DNA from: Clostridia bacterium
GTDB lineage: Bacteria > Bacillota > Clostridia > Christensenellales > Aristaeellaceae
Direction: 5' to 3'
DNA length: 12,957 nucleotides
Assembly: GCA_045599485.1 (NCBI GenBank)
Contig: JAZRWA010000087.1
Coordinates: 1 to 12,957, forward strand
Shown here: positions 1,720 through 12,957 of the stretch, one piece after another
How positions within the stretch are numbered: the first letter of the stretch is position 1
How the letters are laid out: every line of letters starts with the position of its first letter
Translations under genes and position numbers: made by a program
Notes under the pieces: model-generated
What the model saw: only the letters and a program-made list of their open reading frames with translations
Databases searched by the model: none
What the model was told of the DNA's origin: nothing

Positions 1720-3555
1720 TCAGTAAATGCGTACCTCGAAGATGACCGCATCGGGCGCGCCGTGAGTGGCAAGGGTTTCCACACGCACCGTATCGCAGAG
1801 GATCGATTCAAAGGGGACGACGTTGAGGCGCTGCAGGTTGCCGCGGATGGAGCGGCGGGCGGTCTCTTTGCCGTCCTTCAGCAGCACGACATCGTAGTCG
1901 CGCACCAGCTCGGGCGGGGTGCTCTTGACCTGCTCAGTGGCGCGGACGGAGGACAGCGTCAGCTTGATGGACTTGCTGAGGTTGGGATCGAAAACAAGGC
2001 GCACCTCGCTGACCGCTTTGCATTCGGACAGCTTCAGCGTGAGGGTGCCCTGCGGACCGTCGGCCTTCCAGCAGTTGCTGTTTTCGCCTTCGCTGCGGCT
2101 GACGCCGTTGATGACGTTGACGGCGGGTTCCTTTTCGCTGTCGGCACTGACAGCGGCGGTAAGGGCCAGATCGGCGGGGTCTTCGTTCTTGAAGCCGGGG
2201 ATGTAGCAGTCATCCTTCAAAAGGGTCTGCTGCAGCTCATGGATATCGATGCCGCGGATGGAGGTGCCGCCCGCAAGGGCCAGCGCCGCCGCCGTGCCGA
2301 TGGCCTGACCGCCTACGGCGCAGGTGCCCATCACGCGGGTGGAGGCCATGGCCAGCTTGCTGGCGCTCAGGCTGCGGCCGCTGATGAACAGGTTTTCGGT
2401 ATTTTTGGCCAGATAGCTGCGGTAGGGGATGGTGTACAGGCCGTCAAAGGGATAGATCTCACTGGGCATCCTGTCAAAGTCGAACAGGCCGTGCTCGATG
2501 TGGTTGTCGACCGCCCAGCCGCCGTAGGCCACGGCGTCGTCAAAGACACGGTTCTCCAACAGGTCGTTTTCGTTGAGGATGTAATCGCCTTCCATGCGGC
2601 GGCTCTCGCGCATGCCGGGCAGCATGCCCACCCATTCCAGATCGTAGTTGGCGGCACCGTGATTGCCGCCGTTTTTGATGTGATCCCAGACGCCGTAGAT
2701 GCAGTTGAACAGCTCGTCACGAATGTCCTCAAACTGCTCGATGATGTCGCCCTTATCGCCGTTGATCTCGATCCACCAGTAGCCGTAATCCATGCAGTAG
2801 CTGTCGGTCATCAGGGCGAGCGCCTTTTTATCCACGCTTTCGATGAGCGCGTCGGCTTTTTCTTCCAGCTGCGGCCCGATCAGGTCGGCATGCTTGCGGT
2901 AGCGCAGCTGCTCCTCGGTAAAATGACGGGCGGTTTTGGGCGGGGTGAACGGAACGGGCTCGCCGCGGTTGACGGCCTTGAACAGCAGGGTGTTGCCCAT
3001 GCGGTGATCATCGGGCTCGGCGGGGGCATGCGGCTCGTTGAATTCGGCCTTGCCCTCACTGCCGGTGCGGAAGGGAACGCCCGCAAAATAGGCCAGCGTG
3101 CCGTTGCCCGTGCAGTCGGCAAAAATATCGGCGCTGATGGTCCATTCGGTCTCGGTGGTCATCTGCCAGCAGCGGATGGATTGGACACGGCCGTTTTCAC
3201 ATGCGGCATCGTGCATGGTGGTATTGAGAAAAACGGTCAGATTCTTTTCACGGGAGGCTTCAAACAGTACACGATCCCACGTTGAAAAATTGAAATAGCG
3301 GTTGACGGCCTTGTTGCTGAGCAGGATCTCACGCAGGATGCCGCCCTCCTCGGCGTTGGGCTTGGTCTCATCCGCCGAGGCACCGCAGATGTGCATGCGG
3401 ATCTCGCTGGAAGCGTTGCCGCCGAACACGGGACGCTCCTGAATGAGCGCCGTGCGCGCGCCGTGACGCGCCGCGGCAATGGCGGCGATGAGGCCGTTCA
3501 TGCCGCCGCCCACGACGCAGAACTGAAAGGATGCCTGCTTTTCACGTGCTTTCAT
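1720..3555 (-). CDS. FAD-dependent oxidoreductase (GxGxxG Rossmann N-terminus, FAD_oxidored-like) with a C-terminal beta-sandwich/discoidin-like domain of about 150 aa
   Basis: Uninterrupted 611-aa ORF. The N-terminus FCVVGGGMNGLIAAIAAARHGARTALIQERPVFGGNASSE is a dinucleotide-binding motif. AGGAGGAAGAAGA lies directly upstream of the ATG at 3555. The stop is TGA, followed by a terminator. Substrate is unknown. Confidence 0.8.
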   Translation of the reverse strand: MKAREKQASFQFCVVGGGMNGLIAAIAAARHGARTALIQERPVFGGNASSEIRMHICGASADETKPNAEEGGILREILLSNKAVNRYFNFSTWDRVLFEASREKNLTVFLNTTMHDAACENGRVQSIRCWQMTTETEWTISADIFADCTGNGTLAYFAGVPFRTGSEGKAEFNEPHAPAEPDDHRMGNTLLFKAVNRGEPVPFTPPKTARHFTEEQLRYRKHADLIGPQLEEKADALIESVDKKALALMTDSYCMDYGYWWIEINGDKGDIIEQFEDIRDELFNCIYGVWDHIKNGGNHGAANYDLEWVGMLPGMRESRRMEGDYILNENDLLENRVFDDAVAYGGWAVDNHIEHGLFDFDRMPSEIYPFDGLYTIPYRSYLAKNTENLFISGRSLSASKLAMASTRVMGTCAVGGQAIGTAAALALAGGTSIRGIDIHELQQTLLKDDCYIPGFKNEDPADLALTAAVSADSEKEPAVNVINGVSRSEGENSNCWKADGPQGTLTLKLSECKAVSEVRLVFDPNLSKSIKLTLSSVRATEQVKSTPPELVRDYDVVLLKDGKETARRSIRGNLQRLNVVPFESILCDTVRVETLATHGAPDAVIFEVRIY

Positions 3556-4259
3556 TCTTCTTCCTCCTTGAGCGTGAATCGGGTGGAATCGAGATCGATC
3601 TCCCCGGGCTTTTTGACAAAGATGGCGAATTTGATGGGGACGCCTTCGGCGGCGTATTTCATTTCGTGCTCGGTGAGATAGTTGGGGGTGAAGCCGTCGG
3701 CGTGCAGATCACGGGTGAGGTGGCGGCACTCAAAGCCGCAGACCTCAAAATACCGGAGAGAATCGTTGAACAGGGCGTCATCATCGGTCTTGAACCAGAT
3801 CTCGCCCCCGTCGACCAGAAAGGTGCGGTACTGCATCAGCTGGCGGGGATGGGTTAGGCGGCGCTTGTGGTGCTTCAAGCGTTCCGCCCACGGATTGCAG
3901 AAGCTGATGTAGATCCTTTCCACCCGGTCCTCTGCCGAAAACGCCTTGTATATGTAGCTGATGTCAAACTTGACCAGCTTCAGGTTGCGGACGGGTTCAT
4001 CGCCGTAGGCGGCGGCGACGTTGCGGCGGGCATTGCCCAGTACATCGGCGGAAATGTCAAAGGCGGCATAGTTGACGCTGGGGTTTTCATGCGCCATGAC
4101 CGCGGTGGATACACCCTTGCCGCAGCCCAGTTCGACATGCAGCGGCTACTCTTTTTCAAAGCTCTGCCGCCAATGACCGCAGAGCGTTTCCGGCTCACGG
4201 GTAAAGTACCCGCACTCCGTCAGTTCGGGCAGCGCCCACTTTTTCTTCCGCATATGCAT
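3552..4259 (-). CDS. trmB: tRNA (guanine46-N7)-methyltransferase, full length only if the in-frame TAG at 4146-4148 is translated
   Basis: - strand translation from ATG 4259 (alternative 4253): MHMRKKKWALPELTECGYFTREPETLCGHWRQSFEKE-TAG-PLHVELGCGKGVSTAVMAHENPSVNYAAFDIS...FCNPWAERLKHHKRRLT...FKTDD. This is colinear with TrmB (from memory, B. subtilis ...WNTVFGNDNPIHIEVGTGKG...). The ORF-track product (3552..4097) starts after the SAM-binding GxGxG motif. The promoter lies upstream of 4259. The TGA stop overlaps the next ATG (ATGA). Confidence 0.85.
4146..4148 (-). other. in-frame TAG inside trmB (candidate sense or readthrough codon)
   Basis: Context gaa aaa gag TAG ccg ctg cat. It is 51 nt upstream of, and in frame with, the ORF-track ATG at 4097, and 105 or 111 nt downstream of ATG 4253 or 4259. 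Confidence 0.85.
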
Positions 4260-4291
4260 ATCGGCTTGAATCCCCTTTCATCACTGCCGCC

Positions 4292-4377: not shown

Positions 4378-5169
4378 TTACTGGGGCGGGTTGCCTTTCC
4401 AGAAATGATTGCAGACGGTGCAGGTAAGGGGATAATAGCCGTTGTGCCATTCGCCGCTGGCATCCTCATAACCTTCGACCCAATCGCCCTAGTTGGCAAA
4501 ATCCCAGCAGCTGCTGACTTCATAGACATTGCCGCAGATGGTGCAGCTGTACTGGTGGCTGTCATCACCAATGTACTTGCAGGTAACATTGCAGCGTTCG
4601 GAGAGCTCTTTACCGCAGCCGGCGCAAACACCGTCATGGCTGTTGTCGCCGTCCCAGCACCAGTCGACCACATGGCCGGCATTGCTGCCGAAGTTGCGGT
4701 AATCCACATAACGGCAGACCTGGCAGATGCGGCGTTCCTCACCCTTGCGGACACAGGTGGCTTCGCGCAGGGTCTTCCATTTGCCCCAGGTATGGACGTG
4801 GACCAGCACACGGCAGGCACCGCAGTCGGTGCAGGAGAATACGTCAAAATCGCCTGCCACTTCGGCGGTCTCGCCAAAGATATGACCGGAAGCGTCATCG
4901 CTGCTCAACAGATCGGCCAGCCCGGACGTGACTTTGGAGGCGACGATGGCAAGAACGTTGCTCTCGTCCACCTTGACATTGACAGTGCCCAGTACGGCAC
5001 CGTTATCGTCCGTCCAGGTCACGGTGGCTTCGCCGGCACCGGCGGGGACCAGCATGGACATGCCCTCGACAGTCACAACGGCTTCATTGGAAGAGGTGAC
5101 GGCGGCCAGGGCAGTGGTGATGCCCATCAGCATCAGGCAGATGAGCAGCGCGGTCAGCATTTTTTTCAT
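4378..5169 (-). CDS. secreted cysteine-rich protein of unknown function (signal peptide plus multiple CxxC motifs); contains an in-frame TAG at 4489-4491
   Basis: ATG at 5169 with GGAGG (5177-5181) 7 nt upstream. MKKMLTALLICLMLMGITTALAAV is a signal peptide. The C-terminal half has about 16 Cys in CxxC, CxxCxxC and CxxxC spacings. The frame stays open for 36 codons after the TAG (GDWVEGYEDASGEWHNGYYPLTCTVCNHFWKGNPPQ, which includes another CxxC) up to TAA 4378-4380 and then the terminator. The track start at 5235 is an upstream in-frame ATG with no RBS. Confidence 0.7.
4489..4491 (-). other. in-frame TAG inside the Cys-rich protein gene (candidate sense or readthrough codon)
   Basis: Context ttt gcc aac TAG ggc gat tgg. 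After it come 36 more open codons, then TAA and a strong terminator. Confidence 0.75.
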
Positions 5170-5206: not shown

Positions 5207-5235
5207 ATTATAGCCATTCGGATGAAAATTGTCAA
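5207..5235 (-). promoter_or_regulatory. consensus sigma-A promoter for the Cys-rich protein gene
   Basis: - strand: TTGACA (5230-5235), 17-nt spacer, TATAAT (5207-5212). It is divergent from the rplJ promoter. Confidence 0.6.
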
Positions 5236-5257
5236 TGATGCGGGCGGAAAAAAGTGC

Positions 5258-5286
5258 TTGACAAAAGGCGTGGGCTGGAGTATGAT
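5258..5286 (+). promoter_or_regulatory. sigma-A promoter for rplJ-rplL
   Basis: TTGACA (5258-5263), 17-nt spacer, TATGAT (5281-5286). Confidence 0.65.
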
Positions 5287-6534: not shown

Positions 6535-8247
6535 ATGCTGAAACGCGCTTTGGCCTTGACCGCGTTTGTACTGATGATGCTGTGCCTGCTCGCCTGCGCA
6601 TACGGCGAGGAGAGCTTTTTTGCCTATTACGGGGAGGAACGGTGGATTCGCCGTGAGCCGGTCAGCGGCAGCAGCGGCGTGGCCGAATTGCCTGCCAACA
6701 CGGTGGTGAAGCTGACCCCTGTCAATGGCAGCTATGCCGCGGTCAGCTACAACGGCAAGGATGGCTATCTGTATTATCCCGAAGCCAACAGGGTGGACAT
6801 GACCGATCCCATGAGCCCCGACGCTGTGTGGGTGGAGGGCAGCTTTGAGGAAGAGGCCGTTCTTCGCCGCGCACCGCTGAAGAATTCCTCCCGTGTGGCG
6901 AATGTGCCCGCCGGGGAACGTGTGCGGGCAACAGCGGTCAACAGCACCTATCTGTATCTGGAATACGGCGGCAAAAGCGGCTATGCCCTTCGGGAACAGT
7001 TTGCCCAGACCGTTTATCCCTCGGGCATCGTGCTGCCCTACATTGTGTATGCCAAGTCGGAAGTGGTGCTGTACAACGGCCCCTATGCCGATTCCGCTGC
7101 TGTGGGCAGCCTCAAGGTCAACACGCCCACGCTGGCGGTGGGCTATGACGGCGAAAGCCTGCTGGTGCAGCAGGACGGTGCCCTGTATTATGCTCCCGCG
7201 CAGAGCCTGACCGTGCTGGAAGGCAATTATGACACCGAGGATTTTGATGCCGCGCTGGCGTCTGCGGCGGATATTCTGGAATATCCCCTGACCAATGCAC
7301 GGGTGATCGGCAAGGGTAAAAAGAAGGCCGCTGTGACGGTACACGCCTTCTTTGGCGAGTACGCCTATCTGACCTGCGGCAGCTATGTGGGCTATGTGCA
7401 CTACAGCAAGCTGCAGGCAACCAAAAACACCAAAGACGCCATGGATGCCATGCAGCGGCAGATCCTCAAACAAAAGGGCCGCAGGTATCTGGAGATCGCT
7501 TTCCAGATGCTGTAGGAGGATAACCCCATCCTGCAGTATTATAACCGTTACTGCCAGGGCAACGCGGTGGCGCGTTTCCGTTACGGCTGCCCCTATTTCT
7601 ACGGCGGCTATAACGAAAACATCCTGCTCAAGGTGTACCGCACGTGGCAGAACAGCCATTATTATCTGATGAGCAACCGCTATCTGGGCGGCTTTGACTG
7701 CATCGGCTTTGCCCGCTGGGTGCATACCACCGCCGGAGATGCGACGCTGCCCGCCATCAGCAAGGTGCGCTCGGACGGACGCAATAACCTGGTGGATGTC
7801 GGCAATTTGCCCTATGACGAGTGGCAGAATGTGCTGCTGGCCGGCGACTGTGTCAACATCGCCTATTCCGGTGGCGGCTATCACATTGGCATTTATATCG
7901 GCACGCTGCGGGAATTTGGCTTCACCGAGGAGGATGTGGGCGAGCCGCTGGCCCCCTATATGGATCGCCCCCTCATCATTCACTGCGGCATGAACAATTT
8001 CCATACCGAATGGTATGCCAAATACCTGAAGGAAAACGGCCTGTCCTCCGTGACTCCGCCCGATGGCGGCGTGACCATCTCGGTCATGGGCGTGGACTTT
8101 GAAAACTGCCCCTATACCGAAACCATGTGGCAGGGGACGGCTAACGTGAAAACCTTTTATTGGTTTGACCTGATGGGCTATAATCTGACGGTCATCAACC
8201 CCATCGGCAGCAATGTGCGCTGGATGGCGGTCTATCGCAGCAAATAA
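6535..8247 (+). CDS. exported cell-wall hydrolase: signal/lipoprotein peptide, about four SH3b-like repeats and a C-terminal NlpC/P60 cysteine peptidase domain. It is a single ORF only if the TAG at 7513-7515 is translated
   Basis: MLKRALALTAFVLMMLCLLAC is a signal peptide with a lipobox-like LLAC. Repeats resemble VVKLTPVNGSYAAVSYNGKDGYLY and RVRATAVNSTYLYLEYGGKSGYAL. ORFs 6535..7515 and 7567..8247 share a frame, and codons 7516-7566 contain no stop. The NlpC/P60 motifs are YGCPYFYGG, GGFDCIGFARWVH (catalytic Cys) and GGGYHIGIYIG (His). The downstream part has no signal peptide, and its track start (GTG 7567) has no RBS. The gene ends with a TAA TAA double stop at 8245-8250. Confidence 0.75.
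7513..7515 (+). other. in-frame TAG between the SH3b repeats and the NlpC/P60 domain (candidate sense or readthrough codon)
   Basis: Context cag atg ctg TAG gag gat aac. The same frame continues EDNPILQYYNRYCQGNAVARFRYGCPYFYGG. Confidence 0.65.
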
Positions 8248-8268: not shown

Positions 8269-10032
8269 ATGTTTGATATAATCGTGATCGGAGCGGGGCA
8301 TGCCGGGTGCGAGGCAGCACTCGCGGCGGCCCGCATGGGTCTGGAAACGCTGCTGTTTACCCTGAATCTGGACGCGGTGGCCCTGATGGCCTGCAATCCC
8401 GCCATCGGCGGCACGGGCAAGGGGCATCTGGTACGCGAGGTGGATGCTTTGGGCGGCGAAATGGGCCGCGCTATTGACGATACCACGCTGCAGAGCCGCA
8501 TGCTGAACATGTCCAAGGGCCCGGCGGTGCACTCGCTGCGTGCGCAGGCGGACAAGCGTGAATATCAAAAGCGCATGAAGCGCGCCCTCTTTGCCCAGGA
8601 ACACCTGACGGTGCGTCAGGGCGAGGTGATGCGCATTGAAACGCTGAACGGCCGCGTCAGCGGCGTGATCACGCGCACCGGCGAGCACATTGCCTGCCGC
8701 GCGGCGGTGGTGTGCACCGGCGTGTATCTGAAGGGGCGTGTGTTTATCGGATAGGCGCAGTGGGAGGCGGGTCCGCAGGGGCTGCTGCCGGCCACGGGGC
8801 TGAGCGAGAGCCTGGCGGATCTGGGCTTTCAGCTGCGCCGCTTCAAGACGGGCACACCGGCGCGTGTGGATGCCAGGTCCATTGATTTTTCTGCCATGGA
8901 GCCGCAGCCGGGCGATGACAGGCCGGTGCCGTTCTCCTTTTTGACTGATCACGCGGTGGAAAACCGCATGATGTGCTACCTGACCTATACCAATCCCGCT
9001 ACGCATCAGATCATTTTGGATAACCTGCACCGGGCGCCCATGTTCAACGGTACCATTCAATCGGCCGGCCCGCGCTATTGCCCTTCCATTGAGAGCAAGA
9101 TCGTGCGCTTTAAGGACAAGGACCGCCATCAGCTGTTTCTGGAGCCCGAGGGCTTCAACGATTCCGAATGGTATGTGCAGGGCATGTCCTCCAGTTTGCC
9201 ATAGGATGTGCAGTGGGCCATGTACCGCACCATTCCCGGGCTGGAGCACTGCATCCTGACCCGTCTGGCGTACGCCATTGAGTATGATTGCATCGACTCG
9301 CTGGCACTGTCGCCCACCCTGGGGGCGCTGCAGGTGCCGGGGTTGTACCTCGCGGGGCAGATCAACGGCACCTCGGGGTATGAGGAGGCCGCGGCACAGG
9401 GCATTCTGGCGGGTATCAATGCCGCGCTGTACGTCAAAGAGCGGGAGCCCTTTGTGCTGACCCGCGATCAGGCGTATATCGGCGTGATGACCGATGACCT
9501 GACCACCAAGGGCACGGATGAGCCCTACCGCATGATGACCAGCCGTGCTGAACACCGGCTTTACCTGCGGCAGGACAATGCCGATCTGCGTTTGACCGCC
9601 CGCGCGCATGCCATCGGGCTGGCGACGGATGAGCGCCTGCGCCGTGCCGAGCAAAAGGCGCGGGAGACCGAGGAGCTGCTGCGGTGGCTCAAGGAAAACC
9701 GCAAGGAGGCGCTGCTGCGCCATCCCGAAAACACGATCGATATGCTTCTGCCCGAGGACGCGCCCTTTGGCGCGGCAGCCCGGGAGGAGGCGGAGATCAG
9801 CGTCAAATACGAGGGCTATCTGGAGCGTGAGCAGGCGGCGGTGCGCAAGGCGCAGGCCATGGAAAACCGTCTGCTGCCGCCCGATACGCCCTATATGGAA
9901 ATTACCGGTCTGCGCATGGAAGCGCGTCAGAAGCTGACGGCACAGCGTCCGCTGTCGCTGGCACAGGCTTCCCGCATTCCCGGGGTATCACCTGCTGACA
10001 TTGCCGTGCTGATGGTATGGCTGCGAAAGTGA
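8269..10032 (+). CDS. mnmG: tRNA uridine 5-carboxymethylaminomethyl modification enzyme MnmG (GidA), intact apart from two in-frame TAG codons (8752-8754, 9202-9204)
   Basis: Three track ORFs (8269..8754, 8866..9204, 9208..10032) are all in frame 1 and together give a colinear Mnm[25 protein letters not shown] ... [60 protein letters not shown] ... [44 protein letters not shown] ... [21 protein letters not shown] ... [20 protein letters not shown]. The stop is TGA. Confidence 0.9.
8752..8754 (+). other. first in-frame TAG inside mnmG
   Basis: Context ttt atc gga TAG gcg cag tgg. The conserved [11 protein letters not shown] motif follows in the same frame, 29 codons later. Confidence 0.9.
9202..9204 (+). 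other. second in-frame TAG inside mnmG
   Basis: Context agt ttg cca TAG gat gtg cag. It sits inside the conserved S-S-L-P-x-D-V-Q ... GLE ... YAIEYD block. Confidence 0.9.
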
Positions 10033-10042
10033 GGGGAAGAGC

Positions 10043-10396
10043 GTGGGACTGAAGGATAAACTGCTGCGGATGCTGCTGACGCCACAAACGGTGCGGCAGA
10101 CGTCGGAAGAACTGGTGCTGCGCTTTGCCGCGGCATCCCGCCTGCCGGAGGAGGCCAAAGGGTATCTGAAGGACGCGGAAGCCATTTTGCGCCTTAAAAA
10201 AGGTATCAGGCAGGTAGAGACCGACCTTGCGACCGGTACGGTGACCCTGCAGCTCGATCAATTGAAGCCGGAGGAAGCGCTCCGTTGGGTCAATCATGTG
10301 CTGGATGCCGTGCCCGGGGCGGTGAGTCAGATCAACGCCGGTCAGAGCAAGGCAAAGGTGATGAGTGACCTGCAAAAGCACTTTGAAAATGAATAA
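10043..10396 (+). CDS. hypothetical small protein (117 aa), possibly a ferredoxin-like/HMA-like fold without metal-binding cysteines
   Basis: GTG start at 10043 with GAGGGG 6 nt upstream. G/C third-position bias matches the neighbouring genes. The stop is TAA. The segment GIRQVETDLATGTVTLQLD resembles the beta-hairpin of HMA domains, but there is no CxxC. I recognise no family. Confidence 0.45.
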   Translation: MGLKDKLLRMLLTPQTVRQTSEELVLRFAAASRLPEEAKGYLKDAEAILRLKKGIRQVETDLATGTVTLQLDQLKPEEALRWVNHVLDAVPGAVSQINAGQSKAKVMSDLQKHFENE

Positions 10397-11884: not shown

Positions 11885-12658
11885 ATGAGGATCGTGATCA
11901 AGATCGGCACCTCGACCCTGACTCACAAAACGGGGCATCTCAACATCCGTCAGGTGGAAAAGCTGTGCAAGGTGGTCAGTGATTTAAAAAACGCGGGGCA
12001 TGAGCCGGTGTTGGTGTCTTCCGGTGCCATTGGCATGGGCGTGGGCAAGCTGTCGCTGGCGGGACGTCCCTCTGACATGCCCACCAAGCAGGCGGCGGCG
12101 GCCGTGGGTCAGTGCGAACTGATGTATATTTATGATAAACAGTTTTCCGAATACAATCATGTGGTGGCGCAGATCCTTTTGACAGGGGACGACCTCGACC
12201 ATGAGGATCGGCGCAGGAACTTTGAAAACACCCTGTTCCGCCTGCTGGAGCTGGGGGCGCTGCCCATTGTGAATGAAAACGATACCATCGCCACGCAGGA
12301 GATTGCCGTGGGCGATAACGACACGCTGGGGGCTATTGTGGCGGCATGTGTCAAGGCCGATCTGCTGGTGCTGCTCAGTGATATCGATGGGCTGTATACC
12401 GCCGATCCGCGCAGGGACGCGGAGGCGAGGTTGATCTCCGTGGTGGAAGAAGTGACGCCGGAGATCTTGGCTCTGGCGGGCGGCAAGGGCTCGGCGCTTG
12501 GCACGGGCGGCATGCAGACCAAGCTGCATGCGGCGAAAATTGCCGGGGCCGCGGGCGTGGACATGATCATCACCAACGGTACGCGTCCGGAAGAACTGTA
12601 TGATATTGTGGAAGGGCGCCCGGTGGGAACGCTCTTTAAGGGGTGCAAAAACAAATGA
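11885..12658 (+). CDS. proB: glutamate 5-kinase (short form without a PUA domain)
   Basis: MRIVIKIGTSTLTHKTGHLNIRQVEKLCKVVSDLKNAGHEPVLVSSGAIGMG...IVNENDTIATQEIAVGDNDTLGA...LLSDIDGLYTADPR...GTGGMQTKLHAAKIA. The purine-rich stretch GGAAAGCGAAGGAAAAA lies upstream. The track start 11768 is in the promoter region. The TGA stop overlaps the proA ATG (ATGA). Confidence 0.9.
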   Translation: MRIVIKIGTSTLTHKTGHLNIRQVEKLCKVVSDLKNAGHEPVLVSSGAIGMGVGKLSLAGRPSDMPTKQAAAAVGQCELMYIYDKQFSEYNHVVAQILLTGDDLDHEDRRRNFENTLFRLLELGALPIVNENDTIATQEIAVGDNDTLGAIVAACVKADLLVLLSDIDGLYTADPRRDAEARLISVVEEVTPEILALAGGKGSALGTGGMQTKLHAAKIAGAAGVDMIITNGTRPEELYDIVEGRPVGTLFKGCKNK

Positions 12659-12957
12659 CCACATTGGAAATGCTGAAAAGCGCCCGCGCGGTGCGTGCGG
12701 TCGCGGCGGCGTTGGATACGGAGCGCAAGAATCAGGCCCTGGAGGCCATGGCCGCGGCACTGGAAAGGGAGACCGCGCAGATCCTGGCGGCCAACATGCA
12801 GGATGTGACAGCGGCACAGGGCACCATGAGCGCTTCGCTGCTCGACCGTTTGCAGTTGAATGAAAGCCGCATCAAGGCGATGGCGGAGGGCATCCGTCAG
12901 GTGGCGGCGCTGCCGGACCCGGTGGGCAAGGCAGTGACGCGCACGGTGCGCCCCAAC
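12655..12957 (+). CDS. proA: gamma-glutamyl phosphate reductase, first 101 codons; continues beyond the right window edge
   Basis: ATG at 12655 overlaps the proB stop. The frame is open to the window end: MTTLEMLKSARAVRAVAAALDTERKNQALEAMAAALERETAQILAANMQDVTAAQ...LLDRLQLNESRIKAMAEGIRQVAALPDPVG, a typical ProA N-terminus. It is not in the ORF track because no stop lies in the window. Confidence 0.9.
   Translation, partial: MTTLEMLKSARAVRAVAAALDTERKNQALEAMAAALERETAQILAANMQDVTAAQGTMSASLLDRLQLNESRIKAMAEGIRQVAALPDPVGKAVTRTVRPN

Follow-up and report, generated by a model that had tools for sequence, protein, structure and literature searches.

In-frame TAG codons in trmB and neighbouring genes suggest that UAG may be a sense codon in an uncultured Clostridia lineage

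The gene for tRNA (guanine46-N7)-methyltransferase, trmB, of an uncultured gut or rumen-type group of Clostridia, Christensenellales-like, carries a TAG triplet that follows 37 codons of conserved N-terminus and precedes the SAM-binding motif. Its position raises the question of whether UAG ends translation in this lineage or is read as an amino acid. The window, which is the whole 12,957-nucleotide (13-kb) stretch of DNA that was analysed, contains the gene on its minus strand together with putative expression signals and a closely linked neighbour:

3552-4259, minus strand: trmB, tRNA (guanine46-N7)-methyltransferase, 235 sense codons including one TAG; TGA stop at 3554-3552
4149-4259, minus strand: N-terminal 37 codons of trmB, 5′ of the TAG, aligning to residues 1-37 of B. 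subtilis TrmB
4146-4148, minus strand: codon 38, the single in-frame TAG of trmB, presumably translated
4113-4145, minus strand: SAM-binding motif PLHVELGCGKG of trmB, translatable only with TAG38 read through
4271-4278, minus strand: RBS-like AAAGGGGA, 11 nt 5′ of ATG 4259; the same in related locus L001
4292-4320, minus strand: promoter-like site TTGAAC-17-TATACT 5′ of trmB, a consensus match only; conserved in L001
3552-3555, minus strand: ATGA overlap of the trmB TGA stop and the oxidoreductase ATG start
3555-1720, minus strand: FAD-dependent oxidoreductase downstream of trmB, its start overlapping the trmB stop

The trmB reading frame

Translation of the minus strand over 4259..3552 gives MHMRKKKWALPELTECGYFTREPETLCGHWRQSFEKE*PLHVELGCGKG...KEEEE* (the first asterisk being TAG38), in which the conserved N-terminal segment and the SAM-binding motif share one reading frame. 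The frame stays open for 37 codons from the TAG back to ATG 4259, as an earlier note on this DNA had described. The same translation confirms its observation that the product called under the standard code, from ATG 4097 (M55), begins downstream of PLHVELGCGKG (4145-4113). Between the TAG and M55 there is no in-frame ATG, GTG or TTG. The note had also placed the only promoter-like and RBS-like elements upstream of 4259 rather than of 4097, and they are indeed found at 4320-4292 and 4278-4271, with no promoter-like site between 4259 and 4097. A search of the window against Rfam returned no matches.

Comparison with the TrmB family places the TAG inside a single protein. With X at codon 38, residues 1-216 align to positions 1-222 of the 224 in the equivalog profile NF001080, unbroken across X, at 200.3 bits (cutoff 132); the 181-aa standard-code product spans only positions 65-222. 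Pfam Methyltransf_4 (PF02390) covers residues 38-210 (97.9 bits, cutoff 24), and TIGR00091 gives 109.8-110.9 bits, slightly below its cutoff of 112.65. B. subtilis TrmB (7NYB, 2FCA) aligns over residues 1-210, ungapped at X, its EVGTGKG lying opposite the ELGCGKG of the window at residues 43-49. The seven residues E43, L44, G45, C46, G47, K48 and G49 of this glycine-rich motif (E-x-G-x-G-x-G) are invariant in 17 TrmB orthologues. The window protein is 94% identical to P0001, an uninterrupted protein of 236 aa, and homologue lengths fall between 235 and 272 aa in 120 of 120 among the matches listed. All 17 aligned orthologues begin with MHMR or MRMR and carry the upstream segment, and none starts at the equivalent of M4097. 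The suspected resemblance of the upstream segment to the TrmB N-terminus thus holds over all 37 residues, and profile and orthologues alike, by spanning the site, support the proposal that a stop at the TAG would sever the N-terminus from the SAM motif.

Codon 38 is CAG (Gln) in the closest relatives (L001, L002, L003, L004, L087 and L088). Among the 120 homologues listed, 109 have Q in this column, 7 have A, 3 have R and 1 has G; Bacillus and Streptococcus have N. The earlier note had described the site as a variable position just before a conserved Pro; the Pro is there, but the word variable is only partly right, since Q predominates among relatives. Position 38 is a surface-type column directly preceding that Pro.

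Judged from its sequence, trmB is an intact gene under selection, and including the SAM-binding motif in TrmB requires translation through codon 38. Equivalog-level homology and purifying selection (dN/dS 0.065) predict that the product has m7G46 methyltransferase activity on tRNA.

TAG codons in other genes and in a sister species

The local case in trmB is one of five in the window, and the phenomenon extends to a sister species. The five in-frame TAGs lie in four otherwise intact genes, i.e. trmB, mnmG (two), an SH3-NlpC/P60 peptidase and a Cys-rich secreted protein. They are spread over ~3,800 codons, of which TAGs make up 0.13%, and no in-frame TAA or TGA and no frameshift occurs in the window genes. 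The TAG-bearing genes other than trmB, with one associated signal, are:

4378-5169, minus strand: Cys-rich secreted protein, 263 codons; TAG at 4491-4489 (codon 227), true stop TAA at 4380-4378
4358-4339: intrinsic terminator after the Cys-rich secreted protein gene
6535-8247, plus strand: SH3-NlpC/P60 (C40) peptidase, 570 codons; in-frame TAG at 7513-7515 (codon 327)
8269-10032, plus strand: mnmG (gidA), 587 codons; in-frame TAGs at 8752-8754 (codon 162) and 9202-9204 (codon 312)

The lineage as sampled here comprises species A, to which the window belongs, and sister species B, which shares ~91% DNA identity with it and is represented in independent assemblies. Among the loci compared, L087 is the NCBI MAG GCA_024404275.1, L088 is ENA ERZ27247129 and L004 is Logan SRR27361835. 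In mnmG, column 162 is E in 116 and Q in 3 of 120 homologues and column 312 is E in 120 of 120 (both among the matches listed); codon 162 is GAG in L004, L087 and L088, and codon 312 is GAG in L004 and L088. The peptidase is a secreted enzyme with its catalytic domain 3′ of the TAG. At column 327, 30 of its 38 aligned full-length homologues have E and the other 8 have D; all are single proteins of 568-601 aa. The same TAG327 is found in L004, L087 and L088; it is common to species A and B, is fixed in both and predates their split. Codon 227 of the Cys-rich protein is TGG in L001, L004, L087, L088 and L089, and the 36 codons 3′ of the TAG are conserved and end at a common TAA.

Contigs of species B add three sites to the five of the window, for a total of eight. 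Strains of this species carry additional TAGs that vary between them, with only one fixed TAG in ~4,400 codons, and 0 genes on the species B contigs end in TAG. In the oxidoreductase, TAG215 recurs on five contigs, each from a different sample, with the gene running on to a normal stop. Of 146 homologues, 47 have E and 34 have D at column 215, and 143 have E at column 167, another TAG site. Three of the eight sites, a small sample, are strain-level polymorphisms that could be mildly deleterious.

Purifying selection acts strongly on both sides of every TAG, with dN/dS of 0.02-0.1 at dS ~0.4. Downstream of the TAGs the ratio is 0.00-0.07 at dS 0.3-0.5 (0.056 in the peptidase, 0.072 in trmB), and mnmG, with a dN/dS of 0.018, accumulates 55 synonymous and 0 non-synonymous differences after codon 312. 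The N-terminal 37 codons of trmB differ from species B by 7 synonymous changes and 1 non-synonymous change. By the same sequence criteria as trmB, the four other TAGs of the window must likewise be translated through.

Ordinary nonsense mutations that leave pseudogenes, or errors of sequencing or assembly, would produce TAGs one substitution away from the sister codon (CAG, GAG or TGG), as is the case for each of them, in genes that standard-code callers split. The in-frame stops here, however, are exclusively TAG and come with no frameshifts; identical TAGs recur in independent assemblies of different samples, and purifying selection stays strong past every TAG, including one older than the species split. 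That these genes are decaying or misread has very little probability.

Alternatively, the genes may be split, with polypeptides re-initiated downstream of a genuine stop, and NCBI does annotate the species B peptidase as two proteins. This arrangement fits poorly with trmB, where no start codon lies between the TAG and M55 and the SAM motif in that stretch is nevertheless kept: over its 16 codons, the two species differ solely at synonymous third positions. In mnmG the first possible start lies 38 codons past TAG162, beyond the conserved RFKTGTPAR, and a re-initiated catalytic domain of the peptidase would be without a signal peptide. The TAG-to-next-start stretches, which re-initiation would leave untranslated, show synonymous third-position changes only. 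These stretches, and the purifying selection that flanks each TAG, exclude all three explanations: gene decay, sequencing error and gene splitting.

Insertion of pyrrolysine, as in Acetohalobium, Desulfitobacterium and methanogens, is to our knowledge the only sense use of UAG documented in natural bacteria, which speaks for considering it here. The TAGs, however, occupy conserved Glu columns of housekeeping enzymes and not methylamine methyltransferases. A pyrrolysine system was rejected on the distribution of the TAGs over trmB, mnmG, the C40 peptidase, the FAD oxidoreductase and the secreted protein, at Glu, Gln and Trp columns. Both pyrrolysine and split genes are regarded as highly improbable.

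Between strains sharing 97-98% identity, TAGs are gained and lost through one-base changes within unchanged flanks, so no local recoding signal is needed, and a cis-acting signal was rejected on that ground. The region itself (rplJ-rplL, PFOR, mnmG, trmB, proB) is bacterial core chromosome, syntenic with standard-code relatives. A scan for MnmG among GTDB representative genomes found none above 86% amino-acid identity, so neither recoded species is among the genomes scanned.

Amino acid, tRNA and release factor

Taken together, it is rather likely that UAG is a sense codon in this lineage and not a terminator, read by a trans-acting tRNA, most likely as Glu, with Gln as the second choice, and that RF1 has been lost or disabled. 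TAG terminates 0 of about 10 window genes, a small sample, and TAG stops are uncommon (about 3%) in standard-code relatives as well; UAA remains a stop and ends at least four of the window genes.

The choice of amino acid is guided by eight TAG columns, which favour Glu, although eight sites are few. Five of them are Glu or acidic columns (mnmG 162 and 312, peptidase 327, oxidoreductase 167 and 215), and four of these five are GAG in sister genomes. The remaining three are one Gln site (trmB) and two Trp sites, both TGG-derived and at weakly constrained positions. Substitution at these two Trp sites would be radical under either a Glu or a Gln reading. When the sources of TAG were compared with expectation from the codon usage and the four-fold-site mutation spectrum of the lineage, GAG-to-TAG changes were roughly as frequent as expected under neutrality (2 observed against 2.4 expected), CAG-to-TAG changes were under-represented (1 observed against 4.1 expected), and AAG and TAY gave 0 against about 6 and 8 expected, respectively.

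Glutamine is the usual outcome of natural amber suppression, and UAG encodes it in phages that use code 15 and in most of the UAG reassignments of eukaryotes. Here it could be inserted by a supE-like tRNA-Gln(CUA) or, after loss of RF1, by the near-cognate tRNA-Gln(CUG). Such a reading would make the trmB TAG, which replaces a CAG in a column dominated by Q, a silent change. It would also draw on the few Q residues of mnmG column 162 and on the adjacency of tRNA-Gln(CUG) to tRNA-Glu(CUC) in relatives. The trmB column contains no Glu among the 120 homologues listed, which counts against a Glu reading. Nonetheless, the five Glu or acidic sites have little or no Q (0/120, 0/38 and 1/146, for instance), and a silent CAG-to-TAG change, mutationally about twice as accessible as GAG-to-TAG, has been seen in one event against four from GAG. 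Decoding of UAG as Gln is therefore considered unlikely. With Glu as the preferred amino acid, the trmB product would be a full-length enzyme of 235 residues in which Glu replaces the ancestral Gln at codon 38.

A putative tRNA with a CUA anticodon would act in trans and decode UAG throughout the genome, most likely inserting glutamate, and it could plausibly stem from a copy of tRNA-Glu(CUC) with a C36-to-A change. Relatives carry tRNA-Gln(CUG) and tRNA-Glu(CUC) in tandem, the latter with the sequence GGCTCCGTTGTCTAGAGGCCTAGGACGCGGCCCTCTCAAGGCTG... An ARAGORN search of the window together with about 100 related loci found no tRNA of the lineage with anticodon CUA. JGI data were scanned twice for a pattern combining this anticodon with a tRNA-Glu body of Christensenellales type: one scan came back empty, and the other returned 57 CUA tRNAs, all unlike the tRNA-Glu and tRNA-Gln of the relatives.

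Release factor 1 would probably be missing or non-functional, so that UAA and UGA, the two codons recognised by RF2, would be the sole stops. Stop and frame calls in related loci, made with a codon model trained on true mnmG frames, indicate that genes of the wider group seldom end in TAG: ~27 of 900 (about 3%) do so in 80 loci, and 0 of ~80 in the nearest relatives, L005 among them. Since TAG was already so rare there, a codon-capture route fits. Internal-TAG flags raised in these loci look, from coordinates alone, like same-frame neighbouring genes in L045 and like 5′ extensions of ORFs in L017 and L082.

A leaky code, in which RF1 is retained and suppressor or near-cognate tRNAs translate UAG part of the time, would produce a mixture of truncated and full-length proteins, the ‘ambiguous intermediate’. 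The affected genes are all of a dispensable type, so leaky suppression with RF1 present would look identical in the DNA. The rarity of TAGs, their absence from the highly expressed rplJ, rplL and PFOR, the mixed source residues (E, Q and W) and the single fixed TAG of species B all accord with it. On the other hand, TAG is the terminator of no gene of either species in the sequence sampled, TAG327 has been retained through dS ~0.44 upstream of the catalytic domain of a secreted enzyme, and GAG-to-TAG changes proceed at about the neutral rate in mnmG despite its very low dN/dS. Leaky decoding is accordingly rated improbable.

Relation to known codes

Two bacterial codes reassign UGA: code 4, in which it encodes Trp in Mycoplasmatales, insect endosymbionts and Eggerthellaceae, and code 25, in which it encodes Gly in Absconditabacteria and Gracilibacteria. 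The lineage resembles them in that one stop codon stands in frame in conserved genes of a bacterial chromosome and is never the terminator. The codon here is UAG, and the dispensable factor would be RF1 instead of RF2; unlike in code 4, the window genome has about 58% GC and no sign of reduction or AT bias. Amber reassignment is otherwise known to us only from phages, organelles and eukaryotes, with pyrrolysine as a special case. Bacterial stop-codon reassignments described so far, in reviews to 2026, all concern UGA (PMC8629427, PMC13462651), and a published bacterial UAG reassignment was not found in the literature searched. As in the UGA codes, a changed tRNA anticodon and loss of the matching release factor would be expected, and prior rarity of the codon as a stop fits codon capture (PMC8629427, PMC13462651).

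Code-15 gut phages (crAss-like, Lak and others), which read UAG as Gln through a suppressor tRNA(CUA), likewise use amber as sense in a gut-associated prokaryotic genetic system. These phages switch code while infecting standard-code hosts, whereas the present TAGs lie in a bacterial core region and would encode Glu, not Gln. Assignment of UAG to glutamate, presumably by a tRNA-Glu whose anticodon pairs with a stop codon, would recall the UAR-to-Glu nuclear codes of peritrich ciliates (code 30) and Blastocrithidia (code 31). Those codes are eukaryotic, involve eRF1 and usually reassign UAA and UAG together; here UAA stays a stop. Use of UAG as an amino acid codon in a bacterium is shared with the pyrrolysine-encoding Acetohalobium arabaticum and Desulfitobacterium and with RF1-deleted E. 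coli. In the pyrrolysine bacteria, UAG termination coexists with sense use in a few methyltransferase genes, unlike the ordinary Glu, Gln and Trp positions in housekeeping genes seen here. The RF1-deleted strains of E. coli (C321.deltaA, RFzero) show that a bacterium can do without the factor when few or no TAG stops are left (PMC4434889, PMC11903333); they are man-made, whereas the present lineage is wild.

A more specific scenario, for and against which confidence is evenly divided, is that free-living gut Clostridia have captured UAG for Glu by means of a dedicated tRNA-Glu(CUA) and have lost RF1. The process would still be in its early phase: TAG accounts for ~0.1% of codons, and its sites vary between strains. 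It would represent the first natural UAG reassignment on a bacterial chromosome and the first prokaryotic stop-to-Glu code. If UAG is indeed sense here, no natural reassignment of the amber codon would have been reported from a bacterial chromosome before, and RF1 would prove dispensable in the wild, just as in engineered E. coli. The lineage would then offer a young, polymorphic test case for the codon-capture and ambiguous-intermediate models and possibly provide a natural orthogonal tRNA/synthetase pair. It would also be relevant to conflicts between phage and host codes in the gut, a habitat with many TAG-recoded phages.

Annotation of these MAGs under the standard code splits or truncates genes, which lowers apparent genome quality and distorts protein databases. 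TrmB is called as fragments of 37 aa and 181 aa, and the C40 peptidase of GCA_024404275.1 has been deposited as two proteins.

trmB and its in-frame TAG

The trmB gene lies on the minus strand, and its reading frame is interrupted once:

4259 to 3552, minus: trmB, from ATG 4259 to TGA 3554-3552, 235 residues with X at the TAG
4148-4146, minus: TAG, codon 38, the sole in-frame TAG of trmB
4145-4113, minus: SAM-binding motif PLHVELGCGKG
4320-4292, minus: promoter-like TTGAAC-17-TATACT, 5′ of ATG 4259
4278-4271, minus: AAAGGGGA element, 5′ of ATG 4259

An earlier note had described this arrangement accurately, including the motif 3′ of the TAG and the confinement of the promoter-like and AAAGGGGA elements to the region before 4259. 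Under the standard code the ORF starts only at ATG 4097 (M55), 3′ of the SAM-binding motif, and no promoter-like site was found before this ATG. Translation through the TAG yields a product that matches the TrmB equivalog NF001080 without a break (residues 1-216 on profile positions 1-222 of 224; 200.3 bits, cutoff 132). B. subtilis TrmB (7NYB, 2FCA) aligns with residues 1-210 gaplessly at X, with Asn in that column, and the Pfam Methyltransf_4 match begins precisely at residue 38. The 181-aa standard-code product covers profile positions 65-222 only, and the 37-aa fragment alone finds no match. The window takes up nearly all of a 12,958-bp NCBI MAG contig, whose code-11 gene calls divide TrmB into these two pieces, 37 aa and 181 aa.

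A homologue search matched 1,481 proteins, of which the best 120 are all 235-272 aa long. The segment upstream of the TAG is carried by orthologues, as all 17 that were aligned begin with MHMR or MRMR. The closest among the listed matches, P0001 (94% identical) and P0002 (80% identical), are uninterrupted proteins of 236 aa with Gln, encoded by CAG, in the TAG column. This column, which the note had called variable, is instead fairly conserved (Q 109, A 7, R 3, G 1 in the 120 homologues). The note's view that the TAG is no terminator is supported, and the trmB codon appears to be one example of UAG being read as sense throughout the lineage. The trmB stop overlaps the oxidoreductase start (ATGA, 3552-3555), an arrangement also found in the sister species (species B) that suggests translational coupling.

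TAG codons in other genes

Re-reading TAG as sense fuses several pairs of standard-code ORFs in the window into full-length genes:

8269-10032, plus: mnmG, TAGs at 8752-8754 (codon 162) and 9202-9204 (codon 312)
6535-8247, plus: SH3-NlpC/P60 secreted peptidase, TAG 7513-7515 (codon 327), between the SH3 part and the catalytic domain
5169-4378, minus: Cys-rich secreted protein, TAG 4491-4489 (codon 227), then 36 codons and TAA
4358-4339: clean intrinsic terminator, 3′ of the Cys-rich gene's TAA

The 36 codons after the Cys-rich TAG are conserved; the protein itself has no Pfam match. No in-frame TAA or TGA and no frameshift occurs in the window genes, and those free of TAG (PFOR, FAD oxidoreductase, rplJ, rplL, a 117-aa ORF, pepC and proB) end in TAA or TGA.

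Related contigs from different samples (L001, L002, L004, L087, L088 and several shorter ones) make up species B; they are 96-98% identical to one another, ~91% identical to the window (species A) and fully syntenic with it. L087 is part of the NCBI MAG GCA_024404275.1, labelled 'Clostridia bacterium', whose peptidase gene (L087, 8309-10021) NCBI has deposited in two pieces, the hypothetical protein MCQ2453781.1 and the C40 peptidase MCQ2453782.1. MnmG is only 84-86% identical to that of the nearest GTDB representatives, and screening these by homology gave no in-frame TAG with support.

TAG sites in the window (W) and related contigs, with residues in homologues
trmB 38: TAG in W; CAG in species B
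Cys-rich protein 227: TAG in W; TGG in species B
mnmG 162: TAG in W; GAG in L004, L087, L088; 120 homologues, E 116, Q 3, D 1
mnmG 312: TAG in W; GAG in L004, L088 (species B); E in 120/120
Peptidase 327: TAG in W, L004, L087, L088 (fixed in both species); 38 full-length homologues, E 30, D 8
Peptidase 99: TAG in L004 alone; TGG in W, L087, L088; distant homologues carry T or S
Oxidoreductase 215: TAG in L002, L096, L097, L098, L099 (five contigs from as many samples); GAG in L001, L087, W; E 47, D 34 of 146
Oxidoreductase 167: TAG in L002 only; GAG elsewhere; E in 143 of 146 diverse representatives

Codon 215 of the FAD oxidoreductase is thus a GAG/TAG polymorphism inside species B, and the frame runs on to a normal stop in the contigs carrying this TAG. 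The two TAGs of L002 lie at 1278-1280 and 1422-1424. Across this gene L097 shows just 86% identity, so it may represent another lineage or be chimeric.

Selection between the window and species B (Nei-Gojobori; dS ~0.33-0.46)
mnmG: dN/dS 0.018; after codon 312, 55 synonymous and 0 non-synonymous changes
trmB: 0.065; downstream of the TAG 0.072, upstream 7 synonymous and 1 non-synonymous
Peptidase: 0.078; downstream of the shared TAG 0.056
Oxidoreductase (no TAG in W or L087): 0.08
Cys-rich protein (fast-evolving): 0.31; 0.31 on either side of the TAG

The peptidase TAG327 is older than the split between the two species, and the catalytic domain downstream of it has therefore been under selection for the whole lifetime of the TAG. 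The gaps between TAG and possible restart (16 codons including the SAM motif in trmB, 17 in the peptidase) differ between species only at synonymous third positions; in mnmG, the first possible restart lies 38 codons downstream, past the conserved RFKTGTPAR segment. Purifying selection and these synonymous-only gaps exclude pseudogenes, errors and split genes. Moreover, TAGs are gained and lost via single substitutions in otherwise unchanged contexts; decoding is therefore independent of a local signal and must operate in trans, as a feature of the cell as a whole. It is very likely that UAG is translated.

The amino acid probably read at UAG

Five of the eight TAG sites fall in Glu or acidic columns, and four changes are demonstrably GAG-to-TAG. 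Neutral changes to TAG expected in the window lineage were derived from the codon usage of the window and from the spectrum of substitutions at four-fold sites that separates species A from species B.

Changes to TAG by source codon (count in window; expected; observed)
GAG: 133; ~2.4; 2
CAG: 95; ~4.1; 1
AAG: 156; ~6; 0
TGG: 49; ~1.3; 1
TAY: 150; ~8; 0

Given the GAG counts, GAG-to-TAG behaves as if it were a silent change. The empty AAG and TAY classes led to rejection of Lys and Tyr. Gln is an improbable reading because silent CAG-to-TAG would then be the commonest class. Trp would need radical Glu-to-Trp changes in the highly constrained mnmG. The Glu-type events occur in the most constrained proteins, the Gln-derived event in the moderately variable trmB column, and the Trp-derived events in the fast-evolving Cys-rich protein and a T/S/W-variable peptidase column, the pattern expected if TAG encodes Glu. 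These comparative data suggest that UAG is probably read as Glu; ambiguous or other readings take up what likelihood Glu and Gln leave.

Decoding, stop-codon usage and neighboring features

In the proposed mechanism, a tRNA with anticodon CUA would decode UAG, and RF1 would have been lost, leaving UAA and UGA to RF2. The chances that a dedicated tRNA inserts Glu in a cell lacking RF1 seem evenly balanced. Adjacent tRNA-Gln(CUG) and tRNA-Glu(CUC) genes form an identical tandem in three relatives (L065 3795-3952, L070 3633-3790, L083 2710-2867), and either could become a CUA suppressor by one anticodon substitution. No CUA tRNA was found in the window or the related loci of the lineage examined, and the CUA tRNAs that pattern scans picked up in JGI metagenomes were all unrelated to it. 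Many environmental contigs (L106-L162) carry such tRNAs, several in large tRNA arrays (L158, with 27 tRNAs; L142).

TAG terminates ~27 of 900 genes (~3%) in 80 related loci (L005-L086) of a Christensenellales-like group and 0 of ~80 in the nearest relatives (L005: 15 TAA, 2 TGA, 0 TAG). This rarity is unusual, being low for genomes of 55-60% GC; a new meaning for UAG would thus have damaged few genes, as a codon-capture scenario would have it.

According to Shulgina and Eddy (PMC8629427), all known bacterial code changes reassign UGA, and the bacterial cases listed in a 2026 paper are still UGA only (PMC13462651). In full-text literature searches, the only amber reassignments were those of phages, organelles and eukaryotes, of pyrrolysine systems and of engineered E. 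coli. The nearest analogues are bacterial codes 4 and 25, where the same logic applies to another codon and release factor; phage code 15, which shares the codon but belongs to another kind of genome and inserts Gln; and the eukaryotic UAR-to-Glu codes.

Between the Cys-rich gene and rplJ (5207-5286) lie back-to-back promoter-like sites, and no Rfam match to an L10 leader was found upstream of rplJ:

5235-5207, minus: TTGACA-17-TATAAT, perfect
5258-5286, plus: TTGACA-17-TATGAT

The conserved 117-aa ORF (10043-10396, plus) between mnmG and pepC has no Pfam match and recurs in L004, L103, L104 and L105. Another ORF (12640-12957, plus) overlaps the proB stop and continues past the window end; this candidate is presumably proA.
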